Assembly: GCA_017646765.1 (NCBI GenBank) | Contig: JAGCMD010000074.1 | Location: 5,627 to 69,626, forward strand | Length of the DNA: 64,000 nt | Reading direction: 5' to 3' | From: Elusimicrobiaceae bacterium | GTDB lineage: Bacteria; Elusimicrobiota; Elusimicrobia; Elusimicrobiales; Elusimicrobiaceae | Shown here: positions 2,831-23,758 of the stretch, in pieces | How positions within the stretch are numbered: position 1 is the first letter of the stretch | How the letters are laid out: every line of letters starts with the position of its first letter | Program-made: the position numbers and the translations under genes | Notes under the pieces: model-generated | What the model saw: only the letters and a program-made list of their open reading frames with translations | Database searches by the model: none | What the model was told of the DNA's origin: nothing

Positions 2831-3507
2831 TTTGTTTGCTGCCGTTTGGCGAGCTCCTTTTTAAAACTTTTTACCAGTTTATATGCAATACGGTCCGCGC
2901 TATCTAACGTGCTGGAAGAAGTATCATCTGCCGAACCAATCCATATAATTTCAGCCGTTTCCACATCCACCATTTTGGCAATCAACGCTACCCGCCCGCG
3001 AATGGTATATTCCGTCGGGCGAACTTCCGCCGTGCGGGAAACCTCCGTGCCCACATTGCGAATTACCCCCGCGTAAGAGCCGTCCGGCAAGCGCACTGTG
3101 TCTTGCGCATATACCGGTTTAGCTTGCGTTTTGCGCGAAGCGGTAAGTGTCAACTCGGTTCGTTCCGGCGTATAGGCGCTGACTTCGCCTATCAAAAGCA
3201 CATCCACTCCCAAAATTCGTCCGATTTCGCGGGTGGTTTGCGGGGATAAATAGCCGGATACCGCTATATTATGTTCGTTCAAAACACTTTCCAGCCGCGC
3301 ACGTTCCACGACCCGAAAACCACTGTTAAGCAAGTATTTAGCAAACAAATTTTCCACCCCTTGCATTTCCTGCCACGGGCTGTTAAACGCCATGATGCCG
3401 ATACGTTCCATATTGTCAAAATTGTAGGTTTGGCTAATGACTGTTTTGGGAGTACACCCTGCCAAAATAAACAAACCGGCTGCTAAAAAACTTGTGATTT
3501 TCTTCAT
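2827..3507 (-). CDS. CsgG/HfaB-like lipoprotein
   Basis: Likely start MKKITS at 3507; lipobox LAGC; CsgG-like motifs FRVVERARLESVLNE, GRILGVDVLLIG and KMVDVETAEIIW. Confidence 0.7.
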   Translation of the reverse strand: MKKITSFLAAGLFILAGCTPKTVISQTYNFDNMERIGIMAFNSPWQEMQGVENLFAKYLLNSGFRVVERARLESVLNEHNIAVSGYLSPQTTREIGRILGVDVLLIGEVSAYTPERTELTLTASRKTQAKPVYAQDTVRLPDGSYAGVIRNVGTEVSRTAEVRPTEYTIRGRVALIAKMVDVETAEIIWIGSADDTSSSTLDSADRIAYKLVKSFKKELAKRQQTK

Positions 3508-4992: not shown

Positions 4993-5000
4993 GAGATTTT

Positions 5001-6128
5001 ATGACGGACAACACCCTTATTCCGCTGTTTAACCTTAAGGAACAGCACGACAGTTTAAAAGAACAAATCAACCAAGCTGCCGCCGAAGCGCTTAATTCTA
5101 TGCATTGGCTTTTAGGTCCGCAAACCGAAAAATTTGAAGAAGAATTCGCCAAAACCATCGGCGTCAAACATTGTATTACTTGCTCGTCGGGCGCCAGTGC
5201 TATTCAAATTGCTTTAAAAGCCGCCGGCATCGGCCCGGGAGACGAAGTAATTACTACGCCGTTTACTTTTATTGCCACCACATCTTCAGTCTCTTTGACC
5301 GGCGCTAAATTTGTATTTGCCGATATTGATCCGCGCACCTACAATTTGGATGTTACCGACGCGGAACGCAAAATCACCAAAAAAACAAAAGCTATTTTGC
5401 CCGTCCACCTTTACGGTTATCCCGCCGATATGAACGCTATTATGCACTTGGCTAACGAGCACGGCTTAAAAGTAATTGAAGATTGCGCCCAAGCCCACTT
5501 GGCTTCTTGCGGCGGAGTGATGGTAGGCGGCATCGGCGACGCCGGTTGCTTTAGCTTTTATCCGAGCAAGAATTTGGGCGCGTGCGGGGACGCCGGCTGT
5601 ATTACTACCAATGATGATGATATTGCCAATCGTTGCCGCTCGTTACGCCACAGCGGCCGCGCTATGGGCAAAGCCTATGAATACGACTTGGAAGGCTCTA
5701 CTTTACGTATGGACGAAGTTCAAGCCGCTATTTTGCGCGTGAAATTGCCGCACTTGGAAGAGTGGACGGAAAAACGCCGCAAAGCTGCCGCTTGGTATGA
5801 AGAAGGATTATCCGGCGTGCCGGTGGTTTTACCCCCCACCCCGCCGGCCGGCTCCTCCCAATCGTATTATGTGTTCACTATCCGCGCCGAAAAACGCGAC
5901 GAATTGCAAGCGTATTTAAAAGAACACAATATCGGCTCGGCCGTTTACTACCCGGTACCGCTTTACAAGCAACCGGCGTACGCGCATTTAAAATTAAAAG
6001 CAGCCGACTATCCCAACGCCGAAAAAGCGGCGCAAGAAGTGTTATCTATCCCTATGTTCCCGGAAATTACACAGGAACAAGTAACCCGGGTATGTGACAC
6101 GATCCGCGCCTTCTACGAAGAAAGATAA
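5001..6128 (+). CDS. DegT/DnrJ/EryC1/StrS family PLP aminotransferase
   Basis: IEDCAQAH and FSFYPSKNLGACGDAG (PLP lysine) motifs. Confidence 0.93.
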   Translation: MTDNTLIPLFNLKEQHDSLKEQINQAAAEALNSMHWLLGPQTEKFEEEFAKTIGVKHCITCSSGASAIQIALKAAGIGPGDEVITTPFTFIATTSSVSLTGAKFVFADIDPRTYNLDVTDAERKITKKTKAILPVHLYGYPADMNAIMHLANEHGLKVIEDCAQAHLASCGGVMVGGIGDAGCFSFYPSKNLGACGDAGCITTNDDDIANRCRSLRHSGRAMGKAYEYDLEGSTLRMDEVQAAILRVKLPHLEEWTEKRRKAAAWYEEGLSGVPVVLPPTPPAGSSQSYYVFTIRAEKRDELQAYLKEHNIGSAVYYPVPLYKQPAYAHLKLKAADYPNAEKAAQEVLSIPMFPEITQEQVTRVCDTIRAFYEER

Positions 6129-6149
6129 AAACGACGGGTGGTAACTTTT

Positions 6150-6532
6150 ATTTGCACACGAAACCTAAAACACAACGTTTTAGGTTTCGTTGCTTACAGA
6201 GGCAATCCTAAATTAAGTTTAAGATGACGCTCTTTTTTTGCGAGCTTGTGCGTACTTATAGAAGATAACAACTGCTGTTTAATTACAACATCTTATTTTT
6301 AAGGTGGCCTGCTTCCCCAAGACTAACTTTGCGTAAGTTTATATGATTTTTCAAAATCGCTTTTAGTTTGCGGGGCAAGTTGCCCGCATAGGCGTAGCGG
6401 TAGCTACGTCAAGGGCAAGGCACCGCAAAATAAACAGATTTTGGAAAATTGTATATCAGTAGCAAGTAACAAGGGCGCAAACGTAATGTTTGCACCCTTG
6501 TACGCGTTTATAGAAGATACCAACAGCCGTTA
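6150..6532. repeat. Mosaic of palindromic REP-like units between convergent genes
   Basis: Hairpin ACGAAACCTAAAA/TTTTAGGTTTCGT (6158-6190); long hairpin 6338-6457; hairpin 6468-6501; 36 bp direct repeat 6245-6280 vs 6497-6532 (28/36 identical). Confidence 0.75.
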
Positions 6533-7429
6533 TAACATTTTATTTTTCAAACGGCTGGCGATATTATCCAGCTCATCCAACGAGTGATAATGAATGACCA
6601 GCGTACCTTTCTTCATATTCTTGCCGTATTTCACTTCTACTTTGGTGCCCAGGGCAACTTGTAGGTCGTTTTCAAAACTTGCTACTTCCGTCGGTTTAGC
6701 CCCTTTAGCAGCCTTTTTGGAAGGCGCCATCAACGCGCGGGCGGCATCTTCGGCTTGCCGTACCGACATTTTGCTGTTTTTTAATTTCTTAAAAAGTTGC
6801 TCCCGTTTGGCCGGGTCCGACACCATTAAAAGCGCGCGGCCGTGCCCTTCGGTAAGCGTGCCTTCCTGCAGCGCATCTTGGATATGCGGTTCTAATTCAA
6901 GCAAGCGAAGCGCGTTGGAAATAGCCGCTTTGGACTTGCCGCAATAAGACGCTAAATCCGTCTGCGTGATATAAAACTTATTCATTAAATTGCGGTACCC
7001 GAGCGCGGTTTCTATGGGGTTTAAATCTTCGCGTTGGATGTTCTCAATTAACGCCAACGCGCACATTTCTTGGTCGCCCAAATGTTTGTGGACAATGGCA
7101 TCAATTTCCGTTAAGCCGGCAAGTTGCGTGGCGCGAAAACGCCGTTCTCCGACGACAATTTCGTATTTATCCAGCCCGGCATCATACACTACGACTATCG
7201 GTTGAGTCAACCCATGCTCTTTAATAGATTGCGCTAATTCTTGCAATTTTTCCTCGTCAAAAACGCGGCGCGGCTGAAAACGGTTGGGTACAATTTTGCT
7301 TACCGCAATACGGGAAACGACCGTCCCCGTCGGTGCGGCGGCCGTAACCTCCTGCGTTGTCATATTGGAAATTTCTTGCGTTTGTTTAATCAGGGCATCT
7401 AACCCTCTTCCTAAAGCCTGTCTAACCAT
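6530..7429 (-). CDS. parB: Chromosome partitioning CTPase ParB
   Basis: N-terminal LGRGLDALI peptide, PNRFQPR, GERRFRA CTPase motif, HTH domain, C-terminal dimerisation domain. Confidence 0.96.
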   Translation of the reverse strand: MVRQALGRGLDALIKQTQEISNMTTQEVTAAAPTGTVVSRIAVSKIVPNRFQPRRVFDEEKLQELAQSIKEHGLTQPIVVVYDAGLDKYEIVVGERRFRATQLAGLTEIDAIVHKHLGDQEMCALALIENIQREDLNPIETALGYRNLMNKFYITQTDLASYCGKSKAAISNALRLLELEPHIQDALQEGTLTEGHGRALLMVSDPAKREQLFKKLKNSKMSVRQAEDAARALMAPSKKAAKGAKPTEVASFENDLQVALGTKVEVKYGKNMKKGTLVIHYHSLDELDNIASRLKNKML

Positions 7430-7430
7430 A

Positions 7431-8264
7431 TCAGCCTCCGAAATCGTAATTAACGGCGCGTTCGCCGGTCATTTGGAAATTATGATAATCTTCTACATTA
7501 GCTCCGCGGCGGCCCAAAAATTCTATAGCCAGTTGCATATAGGCGTTGGCTCCGCGGCAAGCCGGGTCGTAATCAAAAATAGATTGCCCGAAGCTCGGCG
7601 CTTCGGCTAAACGGATATTACGCGGAATCGGCGTTTTATATACTTGATCACCGAAAAAGCGGCTTACTTCACCCAATACCTGTTTGGATAAATTCATGCG
7701 GGAGTCAAACATAGTAAGCACGCCGCCGTCCATCTTTAATTGGGGATGTAGAAATTGTTTTATTTTGGCTACCGTGCTGATAAAATGAGCTAATCCTTCC
7801 ATGGCATAGTATTCGCACTGGACCGGGGTAATAACGCTGTCGGCAGCCATCATAGCGTTTAAGGTAAGCAACCCCAAAGAAGGCGGACAATCTATAATAA
7901 TGTACTTATACATAGCGCGTAGCGGCTCTAACACTTCTTTTAACATATTCTCGCGGCCGCGTACATTAACAAGTTCTGTTTCCGCGCCCGCTAAATTTTT
8001 ACAGGCCGGGATAACATCTAAAAACTCATTGGAAGTCTGGCGGATCACTTGCCCGAAGGCGGCGGCTTTTATCAAAAAATGATAAACAGATTTTCCCCCC
8101 TCTTCCACGGTCACGCCTAAGCCGGAGCCGGCATTTCCCTGCGGGTCAAAATCAATTAGCAACACTTCTTGGTTTAAGCAAGCCAGCGCGTATGACAAAT
8201 TGATAGAAGTAGTTGTCTTTCCTACGCCGCCTTTTTGGTTAGCAACCACTACAATTTCTCCCAT
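7431..8264 (-). CDS. parA: Chromosome partitioning ATPase ParA/Soj
   Basis: Deviant Walker A KGGVGKTT, DFDPQGNA, IDCPPSLG, IPRNIRLAEAPSFG. Confidence 0.96.
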   Translation of the reverse strand: MGEIVVVANQKGGVGKTTTSINLSYALACLNQEVLLIDFDPQGNAGSGLGVTVEEGGKSVYHFLIKAAAFGQVIRQTSNEFLDVIPACKNLAGAETELVNVRGRENMLKEVLEPLRAMYKYIIIDCPPSLGLLTLNAMMAADSVITPVQCEYYAMEGLAHFISTVAKIKQFLHPQLKMDGGVLTMFDSRMNLSKQVLGEVSRFFGDQVYKTPIPRNIRLAEAPSFGQSIFDYDPACRGANAYMQLAIEFLGRRGANVEDYHNFQMTGERAVNYDFGG

Positions 8265-8323
8265 AATTCCTCCGAACTAAAGTATATATTTATTAAACAT
8301 TATTTAATATAAAAAATCAATGT

Positions 8324-8339
8324 GTTTTCACGTGAAAAT
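8324..8339. promoter_or_regulatory. Candidate parS site 1 (variant)
   Basis: GTTTTCACGTGAAAAT, 14 bp perfect core palindrome, just upstream of parA. Confidence 0.7.
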
Positions 8340-9310
8340 TATTTGACCGTTCCCATACGGCTCGGCGGCCAGTGAATTATCCACGCTTTACCTTTGATGT
8401 TTTTTTCCGGCACCGGACCCCAAAATCGGGAATCGCACGAATTATCCCGGTTATCCCCCATCGCAAAATAAGTTTTCTCCGGTACCGTAACCGGGCCAAA
8501 TTGGTCGCGCAGAAACATCCCCAATACGTGTTCCAATTCATGCTTTTCCCATAATTGTTGGTAATTGTCTGCCAGTACTTCCGGAACCTCTTTTTTATCA
8601 TAATGAGCACGTTGTACATCATCAAATTTTTCGTAAGGTTGCAATGGGGCTAATTCTCCGTTTACATAGGCCCGGGAATCTTTTACTTCCACCGTATCAC
8701 CGGGCAAGGCAATTACGCGCTTAACAAAATCACGCTTATATTGGCTGCCGCCGCAATTTTGTTGTTCGCGGGATTCAGCCGGGAATTCAAATATAATAAT
8801 ATCCCCCCGCTTAATGGGTTTAGCCCAAAGGCGCTTTTGTGTAAAAGGAATTTTTAAACCGTAGGCCATTTTATTTACAAACAAGTGGTCGCCTTCCAAA
8901 AGAGTATCCCGCATAGAGGCGGAGGGAATTTTGAAAGCCTGTAGAAAGAAAAACATAACAATAGAAGCCACAAATCCGGCAAAATAAACGGTATTACACC
9001 ACTCTAAAGCTGCTTTGATAAGCGGTTTTTGTCCTTCCTCATTTAAAGAGCGGTTTTTAAAGAAACTATATATAGTATACCCTAATATAGCCGCAGAGCC
9101 CAGTATAAATTTACCATAGGGGAAATCTCCCCCCGGCCCGCCGCTCATCACAAATAAAATTAAGTATAAGGCGGTATTTAGAATAAGTAGCAAATAAGCC
9201 GAGTGCCAATAGACAAAATGGGGCGCAAAATTTTTCTTATCCATTAGATAGCGGCTTATCTTATAAAAGACATACATAATACACGCTATGATAAACAATC
9301 GTAATTCCAT
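8339..9310 (-). CDS. lepB: Signal peptidase I with extended N-terminal membrane domain
   Basis: IPSASM catalytic Ser, DFVKRV catalytic Lys, MGDNRDNSCDSRFWG box. Confidence 0.93.
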   Translation of the reverse strand: MELRLFIIACIMYVFYKISRYLMDKKNFAPHFVYWHSAYLLLILNTALYLILFVMSGGPGGDFPYGKFILGSAAILGYTIYSFFKNRSLNEEGQKPLIKAALEWCNTVYFAGFVASIVMFFFLQAFKIPSASMRDTLLEGDHLFVNKMAYGLKIPFTQKRLWAKPIKRGDIIIFEFPAESREQQNCGGSQYKRDFVKRVIALPGDTVEVKDSRAYVNGELAPLQPYEKFDDVQRAHYDKKEVPEVLADNYQQLWEKHELEHVLGMFLRDQFGPVTVPEKTYFAMGDNRDNSCDSRFWGPVPEKNIKGKAWIIHWPPSRMGTVK

Positions 9311-9325
9311 ATATTCTCCTTTAGA

Positions 9326-10432
9326 TTAGTTTTCACGTGAAAACTCACCCGAAACCACCTGTTGATAAATTTGTTGATAATGTGTTAAATTGTCCGTTAT
9401 TTGAGATGCTTTTTCTAAGGAATTTTCTCCCATTTCTAAACGGGTACTCTCATTTTCAACCAATAGGTTTAAAAAGCAGCTGAGCAGTGTTATATCTTGG
9501 GGCTGAAAAACATACCCGTTTTTGCCATGTTCCACCCAATTAGGCATATCCCCTACATTACTAACTACACAAGGCAAACCGACTTGCAACGCTTCCAGCA
9601 AAGCCAACGGCAAGCTTTCCTCTAAGGAAGGCAAAACAAATACATCTGCCATATTCAAATAGGCGTTTACTTGACTTTGTTCCCCGGCTAAAATCACACA
9701 ATCTTTCATACCGCTTTGCCGGATATATCGTTCCATTTTAGCGCGCTCTTCCCCTTCCCCTACATATATTAAACGCACCTGCGGATGGCGCAACCAAACA
9801 TTGCGAAAAGCCTGTAATAATGTCATAGGGTCCTTAACTCCGGCCAGCCTTGCCACGCATATAAAAACAATAGTTTTCACGTGAAAACCATATCTGGCGC
9901 GTTCTTGTTCACGCAGGGTAATGTCTTTATAAAATTGAGTTTTATCTATACTGTTTGGCAATAAATAGACTTTATTCTTATCATATCGCTGATGTTTAAT
10001 AAGATAATCTGCTGTAGATAAAGACTCCGCCACGGTTAGTGTATCTTGAACTTTTAAAAAACGATCCAATAAACGTAGTAAAAATGGTTTTTTGGATAAA
10101 TCAAAATGAGGAGTAACTATTAGCTTCACTTTTGTTCCGGCACAAGCAAGGCGCGCGTATTCTATCGCGCGAAATAACATTGCATGGACTATATCCGGCT
10201 GAAAAGATTTTACTTCTTCCCGTATTTTTTGAATAACTTTTCCGGGCAATTTACTGTGAATGCTTTTTACTTCTATACCATTACGTTCCATTTCAACCGC
10301 TACATTTCCAAGCCGTTTAATACATAATACTTTTACTTGATTACCGGATTTAGATACGGCTTTCGTTAAAACAGAAAGCGCTTTTTCAGCTCCGCCGGTT
10401 TGCGTGGATGAAATGATATATAAAATCTTCAT
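9326..10432 (-). CDS. GT4 family glycosyltransferase
   Basis: GGAE N-terminal motif, VARLAGVKD, PSLEESLPLALLEAL. Confidence 0.9.
   Translation of the reverse strand: MKILYIISSTQTGGAEKALSVLTKAVSKSGNQVKVLCIKRLGNVAVEMERNGIEVKSIHSKLPGKVIQKIREEVKSFQPDIVHAMLFRAIEYARLACAGTKVKLIVTPHFDLSKKPFLLRLLDRFLKVQDTLTVAESLSTADYLIKHQRYDKNKVYLLPNSIDKTQFYKDITLREQERARYGFHVKTIVFICVARLAGVKDPMTLLQAFRNVWLRHPQVRLIYVGEGEERAKMERYIRQSGMKDCVILAGEQSQVNAYLNMADVFVLPSLEESLPLALLEALQVGLPCVVSNVGDMPNWVEHGKNGYVFQPQDITLLSCFLNLLVENESTRLEMGENSLEKASQITDNLTHYQQIYQQVVSGEFSREN
9328..9345. promoter_or_regulatory. Candidate parS site 2 (variant)
   Basis: AGTTTTCACGTGAAAACT, perfect 18 bp palindrome in the last codons of the glycosyltransferase. 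Confidence 0.75.
9873..9888. promoter_or_regulatory. Candidate parS site 3 (variant)
   Basis: GTTTTCACGTGAAAAC, perfect 16 bp palindrome inside the glycosyltransferase CDS. Confidence 0.75.
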
Positions 10433-11270: not shown

Positions 11271-12466
11271 ACGTTCAATTTTGCTGTAATTTTCCGGCTG
11301 ATTTCTTCGCCCAGTGCACGGCAATTATTGAGTGCTTCTTCGTCGGGAACAAACGATGTTTTCAAAGCCGGCGTGGCCAGTTCTATTTGCATACTTTCCA
11401 GTGTACGCATCAAATCTTCTATGGGTGCGCCGTTCCAACCGTATGAGCCAAAAGCCGTTCCGATTAAATTCTTTTTACGCAGTCCTTTCAAATAACAAAT
11501 TACATCCGCCATTGACGGAAAAATCTGGCTGTTTAATACCGGCGTTCCAATCAGCAATGCTGCGCTGTCTAATAATTCCAACGCAACATCACTACGATGG
11601 CTATGGTGCATAGAAAGCAGTTTTACTTGCGTGCCGCCGGCGGTAAGCCCGTCGGCGATTTGGCGGGCCATTTTTTCGGTACTTCCCCACATAGAATCGT
11701 ACACAATAACGGCTTTATTCGTCGGACGTTGGGCGGCCCACTTGGCATACAAATTCACAATCTTCGTCGGATCCTTGCGCCAAATAAACCCGTGATCGGG
11801 GGCAATCATTTTGGGAGCAAGTCCCATTTTTTTAACTTGTTCTAAAAATCGCAGTACAATATCCGAGTACGGCAAAACGATATTGGCATAGTATTTTTCT
11901 GCTTCGGTCAACCAGATACGTTCGTCGTTCTCGTCGTCAAAAAGCCGGTTGGTAGCCAGGTGCATACCAAAAACATCGTTACTAAATAAAATGTTTTCTC
12001 TTTCCAGATAAGAAAACATGCTATCCGGCCAATGCAGCATACGCGCTTCCACAAACGAAATGGTATCATCGCCCACATCAATACGGTCGCCGGTTTTGAC
12101 AACCTTAAATTTCAAATCTTTGTGTAAGTGCCCCATTAAATCTTTTAATCCCATGGCCGACACATATACTTCTTCGGGATTAACCGTTTTTACGGTTTCT
12201 ACCAAGGCACCGGAGTGGTCCAATTCCGAGTGATTGGAAATGATAATTTGAATTTTTGCCGGGTCTATGACGCTTTTAATACGCTCCATCATCTCATCGT
12301 AAAATTCGTGTTTTACCGTATCAATAAGCGTGGGTTTTTCGCTGAGAATCAAATAGGCGTTGTACGTCGTCCCCCGATGCGTGGCATACCCGTGAAAATC
12401 ACGTAAATTCCAATCAATAGCTCCTACCCAATATACTTTGTCCGAAATTTTGACCGCCTTCATCAT
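11267..12466 (-). CDS. fprA: Flavodiiron protein (FprA/Roo type O2/NO reductase)
   Basis: HSELDHSG, HWPD, PDHG di-iron ligands plus flavodoxin domain YDSMWGSTE. Confidence 0.95.
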   Translation of the reverse strand: MMKAVKISDKVYWVGAIDWNLRDFHGYATHRGTTYNAYLILSEKPTLIDTVKHEFYDEMMERIKSVIDPAKIQIIISNHSELDHSGALVETVKTVNPEEVYVSAMGLKDLMGHLHKDLKFKVVKTGDRIDVGDDTISFVEARMLHWPDSMFSYLERENILFSNDVFGMHLATNRLFDDENDERIWLTEAEKYYANIVLPYSDIVLRFLEQVKKMGLAPKMIAPDHGFIWRKDPTKIVNLYAKWAAQRPTNKAVIVYDSMWGSTEKMARQIADGLTAGGTQVKLLSMHHSHRSDVALELLDSAALLIGTPVLNSQIFPSMADVICYLKGLRKKNLIGTAFGSYGWNGAPIEDLMRTLESMQIELATPALKTSFVPDEEALNNCRALGEEISRKITAKLNV

Positions 12467-14548: not shown

Positions 14549-14717
14549 CAAACAGTGGATAACCGGCTGAAAGAAAAGAAAAAAAGGGGTATAAAATTTT
14601 TAACTGTGTATAATGTGCATATAAAAAGTGGGTTGTACACAGTTAGATTATAAAATTTATAGAGGATAACTCACATAATCCACACTATAAACAGGACATA
14701 ATACAGGAAATATAAAT
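14533..14717. other. Probable oriC (dnaA-dnaN intergenic DnaA-box cluster)
   Basis: TTATCCACA (minus, 14533-41), TTATCCACT (minus, 14554-62), TTATACACA (minus, 14605-13), ATATGCACA (minus, 14614-22), TTGTACACA (14633-41), TAATCCACA (14676-84); AT-rich; gene-strand bias switches near here. Confidence 0.75.
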
Positions 14718-18687: not shown

Positions 18688-21210
18688 ATGAGTGAAGAAA
18701 ATACCAATCAACCGCAGTCCCAAGAAGTCAATGTAAACGTGGACTTGTTCGGCGATATCCAACAACGTGATATTGCCAACGAAATGCGTTCGTACTATAT
18801 TGATTATGCCATGAGCGTGATTGTCGGACGTGCTTTGCCCGACGTGCGCGACGGTTTAAAACCGGTACACCGCCGTGTATTGTATTCCATGAACGAAATG
18901 GGCTTAAAATACAATAAAGCCTACAAGAAATCGGCCCGTGTAGTGGGGGACGTACTCGGTAAATATCACCCGCACGGAGACACTGCCGTCTACGATACGC
19001 TTGTGCGTATGGTACAAGATTTTTCGCTTCGCAAACCGTTAATTGACGGTCAAGGCAACTTCGGTTCTATTGACGGAGACTCCGCCGCCGCTATGCGTTA
19101 TACCGAGTGCCGCTTGCAAAAAATTTCCGAAGAAATGCTCGGCGATTTAGACAAAGACACCGTCAAAATGATTCCCAACTACGACGGTTCCTTATTAGAG
19201 CCCTCGGTTTTGCCGGCCAAACTTCCGGCTTTGCTCGTCAACGGATCAGCCGGTATCGCCGTCGGTATGGCCACCAACATTCCTACTCACAACTTAGGCG
19301 AAGTCTGCGACGGCATTATCGCGTATATCAAAAACCCCGACATTACCGTCAAAGAGATGATGAAAATCATCAAAGGGCCCGATTTCCCGACCGGTGCAAT
19401 TATCCGCGGCACCAAAGGTATTTACGAGTATTTTGAAACGGGGCACGGCAGCGTTAAAGTGCAAGCCACGACGGAAATTGAAGAACGCAAACAAGGCCGC
19501 GAAGCCATTATCGTAACGGCTATCCCATATCAAGTAAATAAAACCTCACTTATTGAAAGCATCGTTGGTTTAGTGCGCGATAAAAAAATTACGGATATTT
19601 CCGATATCCGCGACGAGTCGGACCGCCGCGGTATGCGTTTGGTAATTGAAATTAAACGTGACGGAAATGCCCAAGTAGTACTCAATCACTTATATAAACA
19701 CACGCAATTACAAACGTCTTTTCCGGTGAATATGTTGGCCATTGTGGACGGACGTCCGCGCGTGTTGCCGCTTAAAGAAGTGATGAAGGCGTACGTTAAA
19801 CACCGCAAAGAAATCATCACCAACCGCACAAAATTTGACTTAAACAAAGCGCAAAAACGCGAACACGTATTAAACGGGTTACTTATTGCGATTGCGAATA
19901 TGGACGAAGTAGTAGCTATTATCCGCAAAGCCAAAGATCCGACGGAAGCCAAACTGACGCTCATGAAACGCTTTACGCTGACCGAAGTACAAGCGCAAGC
20001 GATTTTGGATATGCGTTTACATCAACTGACGCAACTGTCCGCCTTGGCGATTGAAAACGAGCGCAAAGAATTATTAAAACTCATTGAAGACCTAAAATAC
20101 ATTTTGGGTAATCCGCAAAAAGTGTTGGATATTATTGTGGAAGAACTCACTGACCTCAAAAAAACCTATGGCGATCCGCGCCGCACGCAAATCGGCCCGG
20201 ATATGACGGACTTCTCTATGGAAGACCTCATTGAAAAAGAAGAAGTGGTCATCACTATTTCCAACGACGGTTACGCCAAACGCATTCCGCTCTCTACCTA
20301 CAAGAGCCAAAACCGCGGCGGCAAAGGCATCATCGGCAGCAAAACCAAAGAAGAAGACTTTATGGAACACTTGTTCATTACTTCTTCGCATGCTACCATT
20401 TTGATGTTCACCAGCCGCGGCCGCGTATTTGCCTTACGTGCGTTTGAAATTCCCGAAGGCAATCGTATGTCCAAAGGTAAGGCCATTGTCAACCTCTTGC
20501 AAATCACCGGGGAAGAAAAAGTAACCTCGGCTATCGCCATAGAGGATTTTGACCCGAAACATTGTGAAAATACATACCTCACTATGTGCACGCGTTTAGG
20601 CAGTATTAAACGGGTGGAACTCAGCGAGTTTGCCAACATCCGCCGTACGGGTATTATTGCCATCGGCTTAGATGAAGGCGATGTATTAGTCAGTGTACAA
20701 ACTACCTATGGTAAATCGGATATTTTGGTGGCCACCAAGAACGGAAAATCCATCCGCTTTGATGAAAACCAAGTCCGCGCGATGGGCCGTCCGGCCCGCG
20801 GGGTGCGCGCCATTAACTTGGGCGAAGGGGACGTGGTCGTTGGTATGGAACAAGCTCCTAACGACGGCGGCTTGCAGCCGGATGTGCTTTCCGTATGTGA
20901 AAACGGTTTTGGTAAACGCACCGAATTTAGCGAATATAAACGCCAAAACCGCGGCGGTATGGGTGTTATTACGATTAAGACCTCCGCTCGCAACGGCTCG
21001 GTAGTCGGTATCAAGTTGGTAGATGAAACGAAAGACTTGATGATTGTTACCGAAAAAGGCATGACAATCCGCGTCCGTTGCGGAGATATCCGCTCCGTTG
21101 GCCGCAACGCGCAAGGCGTAACGCTGGCCCGGTTAGAGCCCGGCGATAAGATTGCCCGTATTGCGCCGGTTGTCAAAGACGAAGAGGAGAACGAAGAAAC
21201 CGCACAGTAA
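18688..21210 (+). CDS. gyrA: DNA gyrase subunit A
   Basis: [30 protein letters not shown] active Tyr, GyrA box QNRGGKG. Confidence 0.98.
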
Positions 21211-21212
21211 TG

Positions 21213-21332
21213 GTTTCCAAATTTGAGTCCTGAGCCGCCGACTTTCGCTTGCGTACTTGCGGTGCTTTGCACCGTCCGCGGGACGTACGCCGCGCTCAAC
21301 TTACGGCGGCTCATCATCTCAAATTTGAAAAC
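21213..21332. repeat. 120 nt long imperfect palindrome right after gyrA
   Basis: Arms 21213-27/21318-32 (14/15 pairs) and 21231-40/21304-13 (10/10); inner GCGTAC/GTACGC and GCGGTGC-ttt-GCACCGT. Confidence 0.7.
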
Positions 21333-21344
21333 ATACCCGAAAAA

Positions 21345-21543
21345 CTAATGGTTATTTCGTAAATTTCGTAAGCACGCACACGGGCACAACTAATCGTTGT
21401 GCCCGTGTTTGCGTGTTCCCGATAAACAAATTTTCACCTTTGGCCGTCTTGCGCGTCCCTGCCCCTTGACGGGATTACCACCACGCCTATACAGGGCACT
21501 TGCCCGTGCAATACGGCTCAAATCTGAAAAATCATATAAACAT
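21345..21543 (-). repeat. Second copy of the composite hairpin repeat at 6336-6532
   Basis: Reverse complement begins TTTATATGATTTTTCA (identical to 6338-6353) and shares the GGGCAAG-TGCCC-ATAGGCGT-GGTA-CGTCAAGGG core and a downstream 13-14 bp hairpin. Confidence 0.8.
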
Positions 21544-23200: not shown

Positions 23201-23758
23201 TTAAGGTAATGTGTAAAGAGGCAAAGAATCGCTGTCTTCTAAGGAGCGACCATTTAACACTTTTTGACAATAACTACCTGTCGCCCCAGAGAAAATAATA
23301 CCACTTGCTTTCCTTTCTCCACATAAAAGACGACGATTTGTTTGCGGATTGGAAGCATTGAGCCAATATATAAAACCAGTGCCCTTATATTTCCCAGTAG
23401 TACGTCCCATCATAATAGCCAAAGACCCCGGGTCGGAGGCAGCCGTCGCTAATTGTAAGGTCCATTCCGGGCCGGAACGGGTGTCTTTGACGGCACTTGG
23501 CGCATTTAACCAAGGCGTATTTCCGGTATAAGACCCAGGTAAATCTATATCCAATACGCTAAAAGACTCTGCATAAACGCCATTACTCATTTTGTATCTG
23601 TCTTGTGCTTGGACAAGGGCGTTAATAAGAGTAAGCGCTTGCGCTGTGCGGCTTTTTTCTACGGATTTTTGATATTGCGGTAGTGCTACTGCGGCCAAAA
23701 TACCGATGATAAGTACGACGACTAGCAGTTCTATGAGGGTAAATCCTTTTTCTTTCAT
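23201..23758 (-). CDS. Type IV pilin (PilE-like)
   Basis: Class III signal KG/FTLIELLVVVLIIGILAAVALPQY; C-terminal Cys pair; GGAG RBS. Confidence 0.93.
   Translation of the reverse strand: MKEKGFTLIELLVVVLIIGILAAVALPQYQKSVEKSRTAQALTLINALVQAQDRYKMSNGVYAESFSVLDIDLPGSYTGNTPWLNAPSAVKDTRSGPEWTLQLATAASDPGSLAIMMGRTTGKYKGTGFIYWLNASNPQTNRRLLCGERKASGIIFSGATGSYCQKVLNGRSLEDSDSLPLYTLP

Follow-up and report, generated by a model that had tools for sequence, protein, structure and literature searches.

A rod-shaped structured repeat and its gene-end cassette in gut Elusimicrobiaceae

The stretch of DNA analyzed here (the window, 64,000 nt long; contig JAGCMD010000074.1 of GenBank assembly GCA_017646765.1, positions 5,627 to 69,626 of the forward strand, read 5' to 3') comes from a bacterium of the Elusimicrobiaceae and carries, in the gap between the DegT and parB genes and again in the gap behind gyrA, copies of one repeat. 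An earlier reading of the letters alone (the sequence-only reading) had noted the two copies as a composite repeat with conserved structure and diverged sequence. That observation is confirmed: both copies are members of a family of 122-nt rod-shaped hairpins, which we call rods, and a related rod lies next to the second of them. The family is undescribed and, in the scans that we ran, restricted to gut Elusimicrobiaceae. The rods of the window are the following:

6338–6459, plus strand: rod A, a 122-nt hairpin of four helices with an invariant internal loop GCAUAG, apical loop GGUA, and bulge AA; 137 bits against the covariance model R1
21419–21540, minus strand: rod B, the second full copy; 126.5 bits against the covariance model
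21205–21341, minus strand: rod C, a related rod of type C; 24 bits, E = 0.002 in a 121-kb search

The sequence elements that had been claimed as shared are present in both full copies: the 16-mer TTTATATGATTTTTCA matches exactly at 6338–6353 (+) and 21525–21540 (-), and the core ATAGGCGTNGNGGTANNNNCGTCAAGGG stands at 6388–6415 (+) and 21463–21490 (-), with no match in 100 shuffles. Copies A and B can be aligned over ~190 nt, and the rod with its flanking hairpin folds at -79.1 (A) and -78.7 (B) kcal/mol (z = -9.2 and -6.5). The stems quoted in the sequence-only reading do pair as it stated, with the correction that its second stem pair, CAAGGGCGCAAAC/GTTTGCACCCTTG (6469–6501) and CACGGGCACAAC/GTTGTGCCCGTG (21375–21411), belongs to a separate hairpin downstream of the rod, here called hairpin H.

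Nine copies were used to build a covariance model, with which 24 distinct full copies are recovered at 90–138 bits. Across these 24, standard pairs fill 97% of the pair cells, and compensatory changes on both sides occur at 21 of the 40 pairs (161 cells), values that none of 500 shuffles reaches; sliding the partners by 1–3 columns lowers pairing to 34–46%. MAFFT and RNAalifold, run independently on nine copies, return the same fold with 17 covarying pairs. Both tests strongly support the principal inference of the sequence-only reading, that selection acts on secondary structure. The stems vary freely and come in several interchangeable versions. Invariance, complete or nearly so, marks the internal loop GCAUAG, the helix base GGCGU/ACGUC, the apical loop GGUA, and the bulge region around CAAG; every copy also keeps the outer stem, TGATTTTTCA.../...TGGAAAATTGT, as an imperfect inverted repeat. 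Two double compensatory changes separate the rods at a locus that L003 and L010 share, which argues for long-term upkeep of the pairing. One strand is moreover the folded strand (plus for copy A, minus for copy B), since G-U cells outnumber A-C cells by 111 to 9, with four G-U positions invariant or nearly so. The sense strand of rod A folds at -55.4 kcal/mol against -40.0 for its antisense, and model scores are 107–138 bits on the sense strand and 17–38 bits on the antisense. Covariation above controls together with strand-specific G-U pairs is the generic mark of a structured RNA, and the rods carry it.

Rod C has the outer stems and junction sequences of the other rods, and in place of the apical GGUA loop it has two hairpins in a three-way junction; its end lies 2–4 nt from the gyrA stop. 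It has a homologue at 177–315 of contig L007, and both match the model weakly (24–31 bits, E = 0.002 to 3e-5); the two are related rods, which we call type C. Two other identities for the rod were tried and rejected. A small open reading frame beginning AUG AUU UUU CA... yields 5–40 codons of variable length and loses its AUG in some copies, and a likeness to domain 5 of group II introns (GAGCCGUAU) is confined to one variant of a variable stem.

The sequence-only reading had suggested looking for further copies; the core occurs only in metagenome-assembled genomes (MAGs) of Elusimicrobiaceae and in gut and rumen metagenomes. An exact scan for the core over one genome per prokaryotic species finds it in eight places, all of them in MAGs of Elusimicrobiaceae or Elusimicrobium sampled from rumen, horse faeces, and the like, with 1–2 copies per genome; a slightly looser core pattern matches 21 metagenome contigs and no viral contig. 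The sequencing runs that contain the window copy are gut or bovine metagenomes. All told, a genome holds ~2–6 diverged copies, and metagenome depth suggests, roughly, ~5–6 per genome equivalent. The earlier statement that the element matches no named family also stands: Rfam 15, searched with the whole window, gives 0 matches at gathering thresholds and nothing credible at E up to 10, the best sub-threshold matches being RT-3 (16 bits, gathering threshold 40.5) and tpke11 (23 bits, gathering threshold 43, on hairpin H only), and blastn of the element against plasmids and phages finds no match.

Alignment of the flanks of all copies shows that the rod is one part of a cassette of ~220–250 nt with the fixed order leader I, rod, spacer, hairpin H, and tail X. 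In the DegT-parB gap two such modules stand face to face: a short one (X-H0 plus a rod-tail remnant) at the DegT stop, and cassette A at the parB stop. Beyond the rods, the parts in the window are as follows:

6129–6236, minus strand: short opposite-facing module, with an X-like tail at the DegT stop (6129–6157) and hairpin H0 (6158–6190)
6237–6310, plus strand: decayed direct repeat of the 3' half of H1, X, and the last ~8 parB codons (pseudo-end ...LKNKML*)
6311–6337, plus strand: leader I (CTGCTTCCCCAAGACTAACTTTGCGTAAG), with a core AGACTAAC that is found 5' of most rods, whether full or partial
6460–6501, plus strand: spacer (6460–6468) and long hairpin H1 (6469–6501), with no U-tract
6502–6532, plus strand: tail X (GTACGCGTTTATAGAAGATACCAACAGCCG), which runs into the parB stop codon TTA (6530–6532, opposite strand)
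21342–21374, minus strand: tail X of cassette B (GTGCGTGCTTACGAAATTTACGAAATAACCATT)
21375–21418, minus strand: spacer and hairpin H of cassette B, 100% identical to those of UBA1202

In the short module, positions 6191–6236 (-) were assigned by eye, against the L010 tail, to a spacer, a rod-tail remnant, and a small-hairpin remnant. The leader motif AGA[CA]TA[AC][CT] adjoins rods in the loci, save about five scattered matches; the structure of leader I is not significant, and the region upstream of it gives no structure signal (z ~0). The spacer is GAACAAGACA-like across cassettes and tail X is conserved as GTGCGYRCTTAYRGAA..AACAGCCGTT; hairpin H differs in sequence from locus to locus yet always folds, and its distance from the rod is constant. 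The end of the rod lies 70–76 nt from the stop codon of the convergent gene in 11 loci (70 nt in copy A) and 102–118 nt from it in four loci with a small hairpin repeat nested in the H loop; this distance is fixed, and therefore the cassette ends exactly at the stop codon. The genes so abutted, usually housekeeping genes, comprise parB, gyrA, fusA, two FeFe-hydrogenase genes, and those for iPGM, ETF-alpha, a peptide-binding protein, and Wzz. The sequence-only reading had placed both copies just downstream of stop codons, which is true of the cassette tail only and not of the rods: in copy A, tail X ends at the opposite-strand parB stop and 210 nt separate the DegT stop from the start of the rod, and in copy B, rod C comes between X and the gyrA stop while the 5' side faces the start of a divergent gene.

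Comparison with UBA1202 (loci L002 and L004) sets the cassette apart from its surroundings. From leader through X (6311–6538) it is 100% identical, leader I included, against 91.5% for DegT, 87.9% for parB, 80.7% for parA, and 72% for the decayed repeat to its left. At the second locus rod C, X, H, and rod B are 97–100% identical and the flanks 87–95%; rod B itself, at 97.5%, has three lineage-specific changes, which weaken pairing. Such conservation points either to strong purifying selection acting across the cassette or to its recent homogenization. These figures bear on the supposition that the rod is a neutral palindromic repeat without function, its pairing kept mechanically by hairpin-templated repair or arm-to-arm gene conversion. 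Intramolecular templating can indeed homogenize palindromes, and the region is a mosaic of decaying repeats; under arm conversion, however, the four invariant G-U positions would be lost, as would the asymmetric loops, and all 24 copies conserve both; the neighboring junk repeat has fallen to 72% while the cassette stays at 100%. We regard this explanation as very improbable.

Relatives retrieved through ParB and the amylase-like protein show how the cassette came to occupy the two gaps. Between parB and DegT it is present in L030 (ParB 97% identical) and, with a different middle helix, in L031 (ParB 92%), whereas L032 (ParB 89%) has a gap of 59 nt (3401–3459) filled by a canonical bidirectional terminator (AAAAAAGGCCACC...GGTGGCCTTTTTTT), and in L033 (ParB 88%) a pilin gene takes the position of DegT and the rod is absent. 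Behind gyrA, L034 (1367–1500) and L036 (1374–1500) carry a canonical Rho-independent terminator and then the amylase promoter, L035 has X at the gyrA stop followed by H, the spacer, and a 5'-truncated rod, and in the window the order is rod C, X, H, rod B. Because the empty sites of relatives hold canonical Rho-independent terminators, the cassette was gained in sub-lineages and replaced them. Where it is present the ordinary terminator is gone: DegT, parB, and gyrA of the window all lack a canonical one, and a scan of both window gaps finds neither a canonical terminator nor a sigma-70-like promoter. Hairpin H has no U-tract on either strand and so is not a Rho-independent terminator of the usual form. 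The orthologous rod of L031 (3401–3950) also has its apical hairpin split by a ~290-nt insert with inverted ends of ~27 nt (TGGGTTAGCAAGGAATTCTATTTGC ... GCAAATAGAACTCCTTGCTAACCCCA), which looks like a separate element of the miniature inverted-repeat transposable element (MITE) kind.

On its upstream side the rod keeps a different company. The nearest upstream gene on the same strand is type IV pilin-like (N_methyl) in 13 loci, and the convergent downstream gene is never pilin-like; the window as a whole has one pilin-like gene in 64 kb. Such genes form a family of ~100 paralogues per genome equivalent, a rough figure taken from depth in DNA-like runs: words from the coding region of the pilin N-terminus (L018:3443–3565, runs X28/X29) reach a depth of 5,000–9,500 against ~60 for single-copy contigs. 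Pilin genes in rod loci have clear TTGACA-N17-GATAAT promoters. The pilin-like gene of the window (23201–23758, -) lies between the amylase-like gene and the atp operon and is absent in three relatives; there the atp operon directly follows the amylase gene, which marks the window gene as an insertion. It is 53% identical to its UBA1202 counterpart, with neighbors at 87%.

RNA runs were examined as assembled, undirected contigs. In a metatranscriptome from a relative (X26), a 249-nt contig joins X, leader, rod, and spacer without a break, at a depth of 3.8 against 9.7 for the neighboring gene; X26 resembles real RNA in that it shows no multi-copy excess of the pilin N-terminal region, unlike the DNA-like runs. 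It seems from this that the rod is part of a longer transcript and does not accumulate as an abundant, discrete species.

The reading that we prefer, and to which we give about an even chance, is that of a transcribed cassette of the 3' untranslated region (3'-UTR) and terminator, in which the rod, with a putative partner, works at the RNA level on the upstream gene's transcript. The cassette, gained at gene ends in place of ordinary Rho-independent terminators, persists there, duplicates in tandem, loses its 5' part, and recombines with other copies. Its rod is selected to fold on one strand, sense to an upstream gene that is very often pilin-like, and would be transcribed by read-through as the 3'-UTR of that gene, with the transcript ending at H; H in turn would be the 3'-end or terminator structure for both convergent genes, a function suggested by the canonical terminators at the empty sites of relatives. 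The data establish the structure, the strand bias, the anatomy of the cassette, its gain and the replacement of terminators, its conservation, and the tie to pilins; read-through transcription, termination at H, and action as RNA are inferred. The invariance of the loops (GCAUAG, GGUA, CGUCAAG) implies a specific partner, and by binding it they may affect 3'-end formation, processing, or stability. Of the two origins offered by the sequence-only reading, the branch that proposed a 3'-UTR or noncoding RNA motif fits best. That reading had not described the cassette, its abutment to stop codons, the loss of terminators, or the tie to pilin-like genes.

Several points weigh against this account. 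The upstream gene is divergent in five loci, window copy B among them, so read-through cannot supply the transcript there. H has no U-tract, and its terminator role is inferred from missing canonical terminators. The RNA support is weak, being one undirected X26 contig at a depth of 3.8, from a relative. Recent recombination instead of selection could underlie the 100% identity over 228 nt, a plain stabilizing hairpin would not need invariant loops, and the G-T bias would equally suit a single-stranded DNA substrate.

The same five loci (copy B of the window, L008, L022, L023, and L029), where the rod would need a promoter of its own, speak for a family of free-standing small RNA genes, with ~2–6 paralogues per genome acting in trans. 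Leader I would then act as a non-canonical promoter and H as the terminator, the RNA might for example bind or sequester a protein through its invariant loops, and the link to pilins would be regulatory. Invariant loops amid covarying stems suit such a gene, as do orthologues that are highly conserved beside paralogues that are diverged, and leader I is conserved at a fixed distance from the rod and includes TAACTTTG-like and TAGAAG-like boxes. Yet no sigma-70-type promoter precedes either window copy, though the pilin genes in the same loci have clear ones; the X26 contig extends upstream of leader I into X; RNA depth does not exceed that of neighboring mRNAs; the loops are not unusually complementary to pilin 5' regions; and truncated or interrupted copies are common. 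We consider a small RNA of this kind unlikely. Two related candidates were discarded: sigma-54 and Bacteroidetes-type boxes in leader I were unconvincing by eye, and for a trans-antisense RNA on pilin 5' regions the duplex energies equal those of shuffled controls.

The cassettes also show signs of rearrangement and turnover. Several copies are flanked by direct repeats of 30–95 nt, made up of the last 12–26 nt of the rod plus spacer, H, and X; the one flanking copy A also spans the last ~8 parB codons (6237–6310 against 6489–6560). Pilin stop codons are often directly trailed by 5'-truncated units and then a full unit, full units stand in tandem 320 nt apart in L010, and one metagenome carries an array form that lacks exactly one unit. 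Contigs L011 and L017 have an identical rod, the same convergent fusA, and near-identical H and X, with different upstream pilins and leaders. Either tandem duplication with later decay or homologous (Campbell-type) integration between shared modules would account for these patterns. Between the same two cassettes the H loop is inverted (ATTATT at L011:5128–5200, AATAAT at L017:5659–5731), a small inversion mediated by the hairpin arms. In the window, 6226–6288 is the site of a strain-level polymorphism, a 61-nt deletion of the decayed repeat between CTTAT microhomologies, seen in L030 and as a joint in DNA run X3. Contig L020 has, inside a repeat array (11300–11610, -), a gene for a 97-aa GIY-YIG nuclease (Pfam E = 5e-17) flanked by small hairpins (atcccgcat...gcgggat), and these small hairpins recur, nested, in H-hairpin loops and in pilin leaders.

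Much of this rearrangement can be turned to the support of another view, that the rod acts at the DNA level. Folded while the DNA is replicated or taken up, one of its strands would serve as a site of mobility or recombination in the manner of a MITE, a repetitive extragenic palindrome (REP), or an integron attC site, and a structure-specific recombinase or nuclease (HUH/RAYT-like, GIY-YIG/Ssn-like, or an attC-type integrase) would move or exchange the cassette and neighboring pilin genes. The gain of the cassette where relatives have an empty site, the flanking direct repeats and the 5'-truncated copies that keep only the last 12–26 nt of the rod, the varying number of tandem units, the shuffled modules, the different pilins beside an identical rod, the inverted H loop, the nuclease gene between small hairpins, and a 228-nt block identical between genomes ~10% apart all agree with such a site, and attC sites too show single-strand asymmetry. 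Against this, no recombinase or transposase is adjacent in ~30 loci, there is no short target-site duplication and no RYYYAAC/GTTRRRY end, copy number is low and the copies are old and diverged, and tandem duplication with decay, or Campbell-type integration, accounts for the flanking repeats just as well. Four DNA metagenomes show no presence/absence polymorphism of the cassette, only the 61-nt deletion of the decayed repeat. The orientation of the rod, moreover, is tied to the direction of pilin transcription (13 to 0), which is a better fit to RNA. A DNA site is possible, though in our judgment doubtful. The mobile element of the sequence-only reading survives in part: the empty sites in relatives make the cassette mobile over evolutionary time. 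No transposase lies in the ~300 kb of flanks read, there is likewise no RAYT among the 38 neighboring proteins scanned, and flanks, plasmids, and phages yield no insertion sequence that shares the ends of the rod and could be its parent. As to a short target-site duplication, the rod-end repeats TGTTTAT and TTGCC were considered and rejected as subfamily-specific, inconsistent flanks.

A further and quite unlikely construction makes the rod the nucleic-acid component, as RNA or as a folded single strand, of an unrecognized site-directed system of insertion or exchange that would install pilin-gene cassettes and a terminator module at housekeeping stop codons. The 5'-truncated copies and long flanking repeats would then be its footprints, left for example by template-primed copying that stalls at the rod or by integration of a circular unit.

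Among known systems, the rod and its cassette work most like the intergenic elements of the ERIC, Correia, or BIME/NIME type, and they fail the defining tests for MITEs, REPs, attC sites, and every Rfam family. ERIC elements (enterobacterial repetitive intergenic consensus), or intergenic repeat units, are reportedly imperfect palindromes of ~127 nt in transcribed intergenic regions of Enterobacteriaceae and Vibrio. The rod resembles them in size, rod-like fold, 3' or intergenic location, copy number (low to moderate in some hosts), conserved pairing, and gain or loss at orthologous sites; it differs in having no sequence relation to them, in its phylum, and in its invariant loops, its fixed cassette with a second hairpin and a stop-codon tail, and its link to pilin-like genes. 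Correia elements (CREE) of Neisseria, of 100–150 nt with inverted ends, form mRNA hairpins that influence transcript ends and stability; their 26-bp terminal inverted repeats, TA target duplication, and hundreds of near-identical copies have no counterpart in the rod. A MITE would share terminal inverted repeats with it, in the form of the outer stem. The flanking repeats, however, are not a consistent short target-site duplication, being 30–95 nt long and including part of the element, and instead of many near-identical copies the pattern scan finds 1–2 per species genome with many compensatory differences. With REPs and the bacterial interspersed mosaic elements (BIMEs) that contain them, the cassette has in common its place between convergent genes, its mosaic build, and a capacity to act as transcript 3'-end structure, whereas REPs are 20–40 nt long with a conserved tetranucleotide head and hundreds of copies, and the rod is 122 nt with H sequences that differ between loci. 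The MITE or REP label of the sequence-only reading is accordingly dropped on the absence of a short target-site duplication, on ~2–6 diverged copies, on a length of 122 nt and not 20–40 nt, and on the lack of a transposase in those ~300 kb of flanks.

An attC site, like the rod, lies 3' of a cassette gene, spans 60–140 nt, and conserves a one-strand fold through variable sequence. The rod lacks R''/R' core sites, an integrase, and long cassette arrays, and its neighboring genes have their own promoters; its ends, ...GATGATTTTTCA and TGGAAAATTGT..., do not fit RYYYAAC...GTTRRRY, and the next gene is convergent. The Neisseria intergenic mosaic elements (NIMEs), in which RS units are flanked by dRS3/NTS hairpins, are alike in their surroundings, forming with the GIY-YIG nuclease Ssn mosaic arrays around pilin and surface-protein genes (PMC11893778). 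Small hairpin repeats and a GIY-YIG gene in the same arrays, as in L020, resemble the published pairing of Ssn with NTS (PMC11893778), and shared modules could, as in NIMEs, serve as homology for exchanging the genes between them. NTS/dRS3 hairpins are 20–50 nt long and are recognized as single-stranded DNA (PMC11893778), whereas the rod, at 122 nt, is much larger and covaries like RNA, and an Ssn target motif in it is not demonstrated.

Twenty-four diverse copies that covary strongly and keep their loops invariant give clean support to the rod as a new structured motif in a barely studied phylum. The cassette that carries it takes the place of ordinary terminators behind core genes (among them parB, gyrA, fusA, and the hydrogenase genes), and the rod tracks a pilin-like family of roughly 100 paralogues. 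Should it prove to be an RNA with a specific partner, it would point to a lineage-specific means of forming or controlling 3' ends; as a recombination site, it would go some way to explaining the spread and exchange of pilin-like genes. Either way, annotators gain a model for the "empty" gaps of ~250 nt in Elusimicrobiaceae genomes.

Tail X was also considered as a dif/Xer site and rejected by reading, being not palindromic and present at many loci, near the origin. Between the two rod loci, the window has a long hairpin at 14599–14647, within the A+T-rich gap that precedes gyrB, and words resembling DnaA boxes stand close by; from these features it may be the oriC region, which the two rod loci would then flank.
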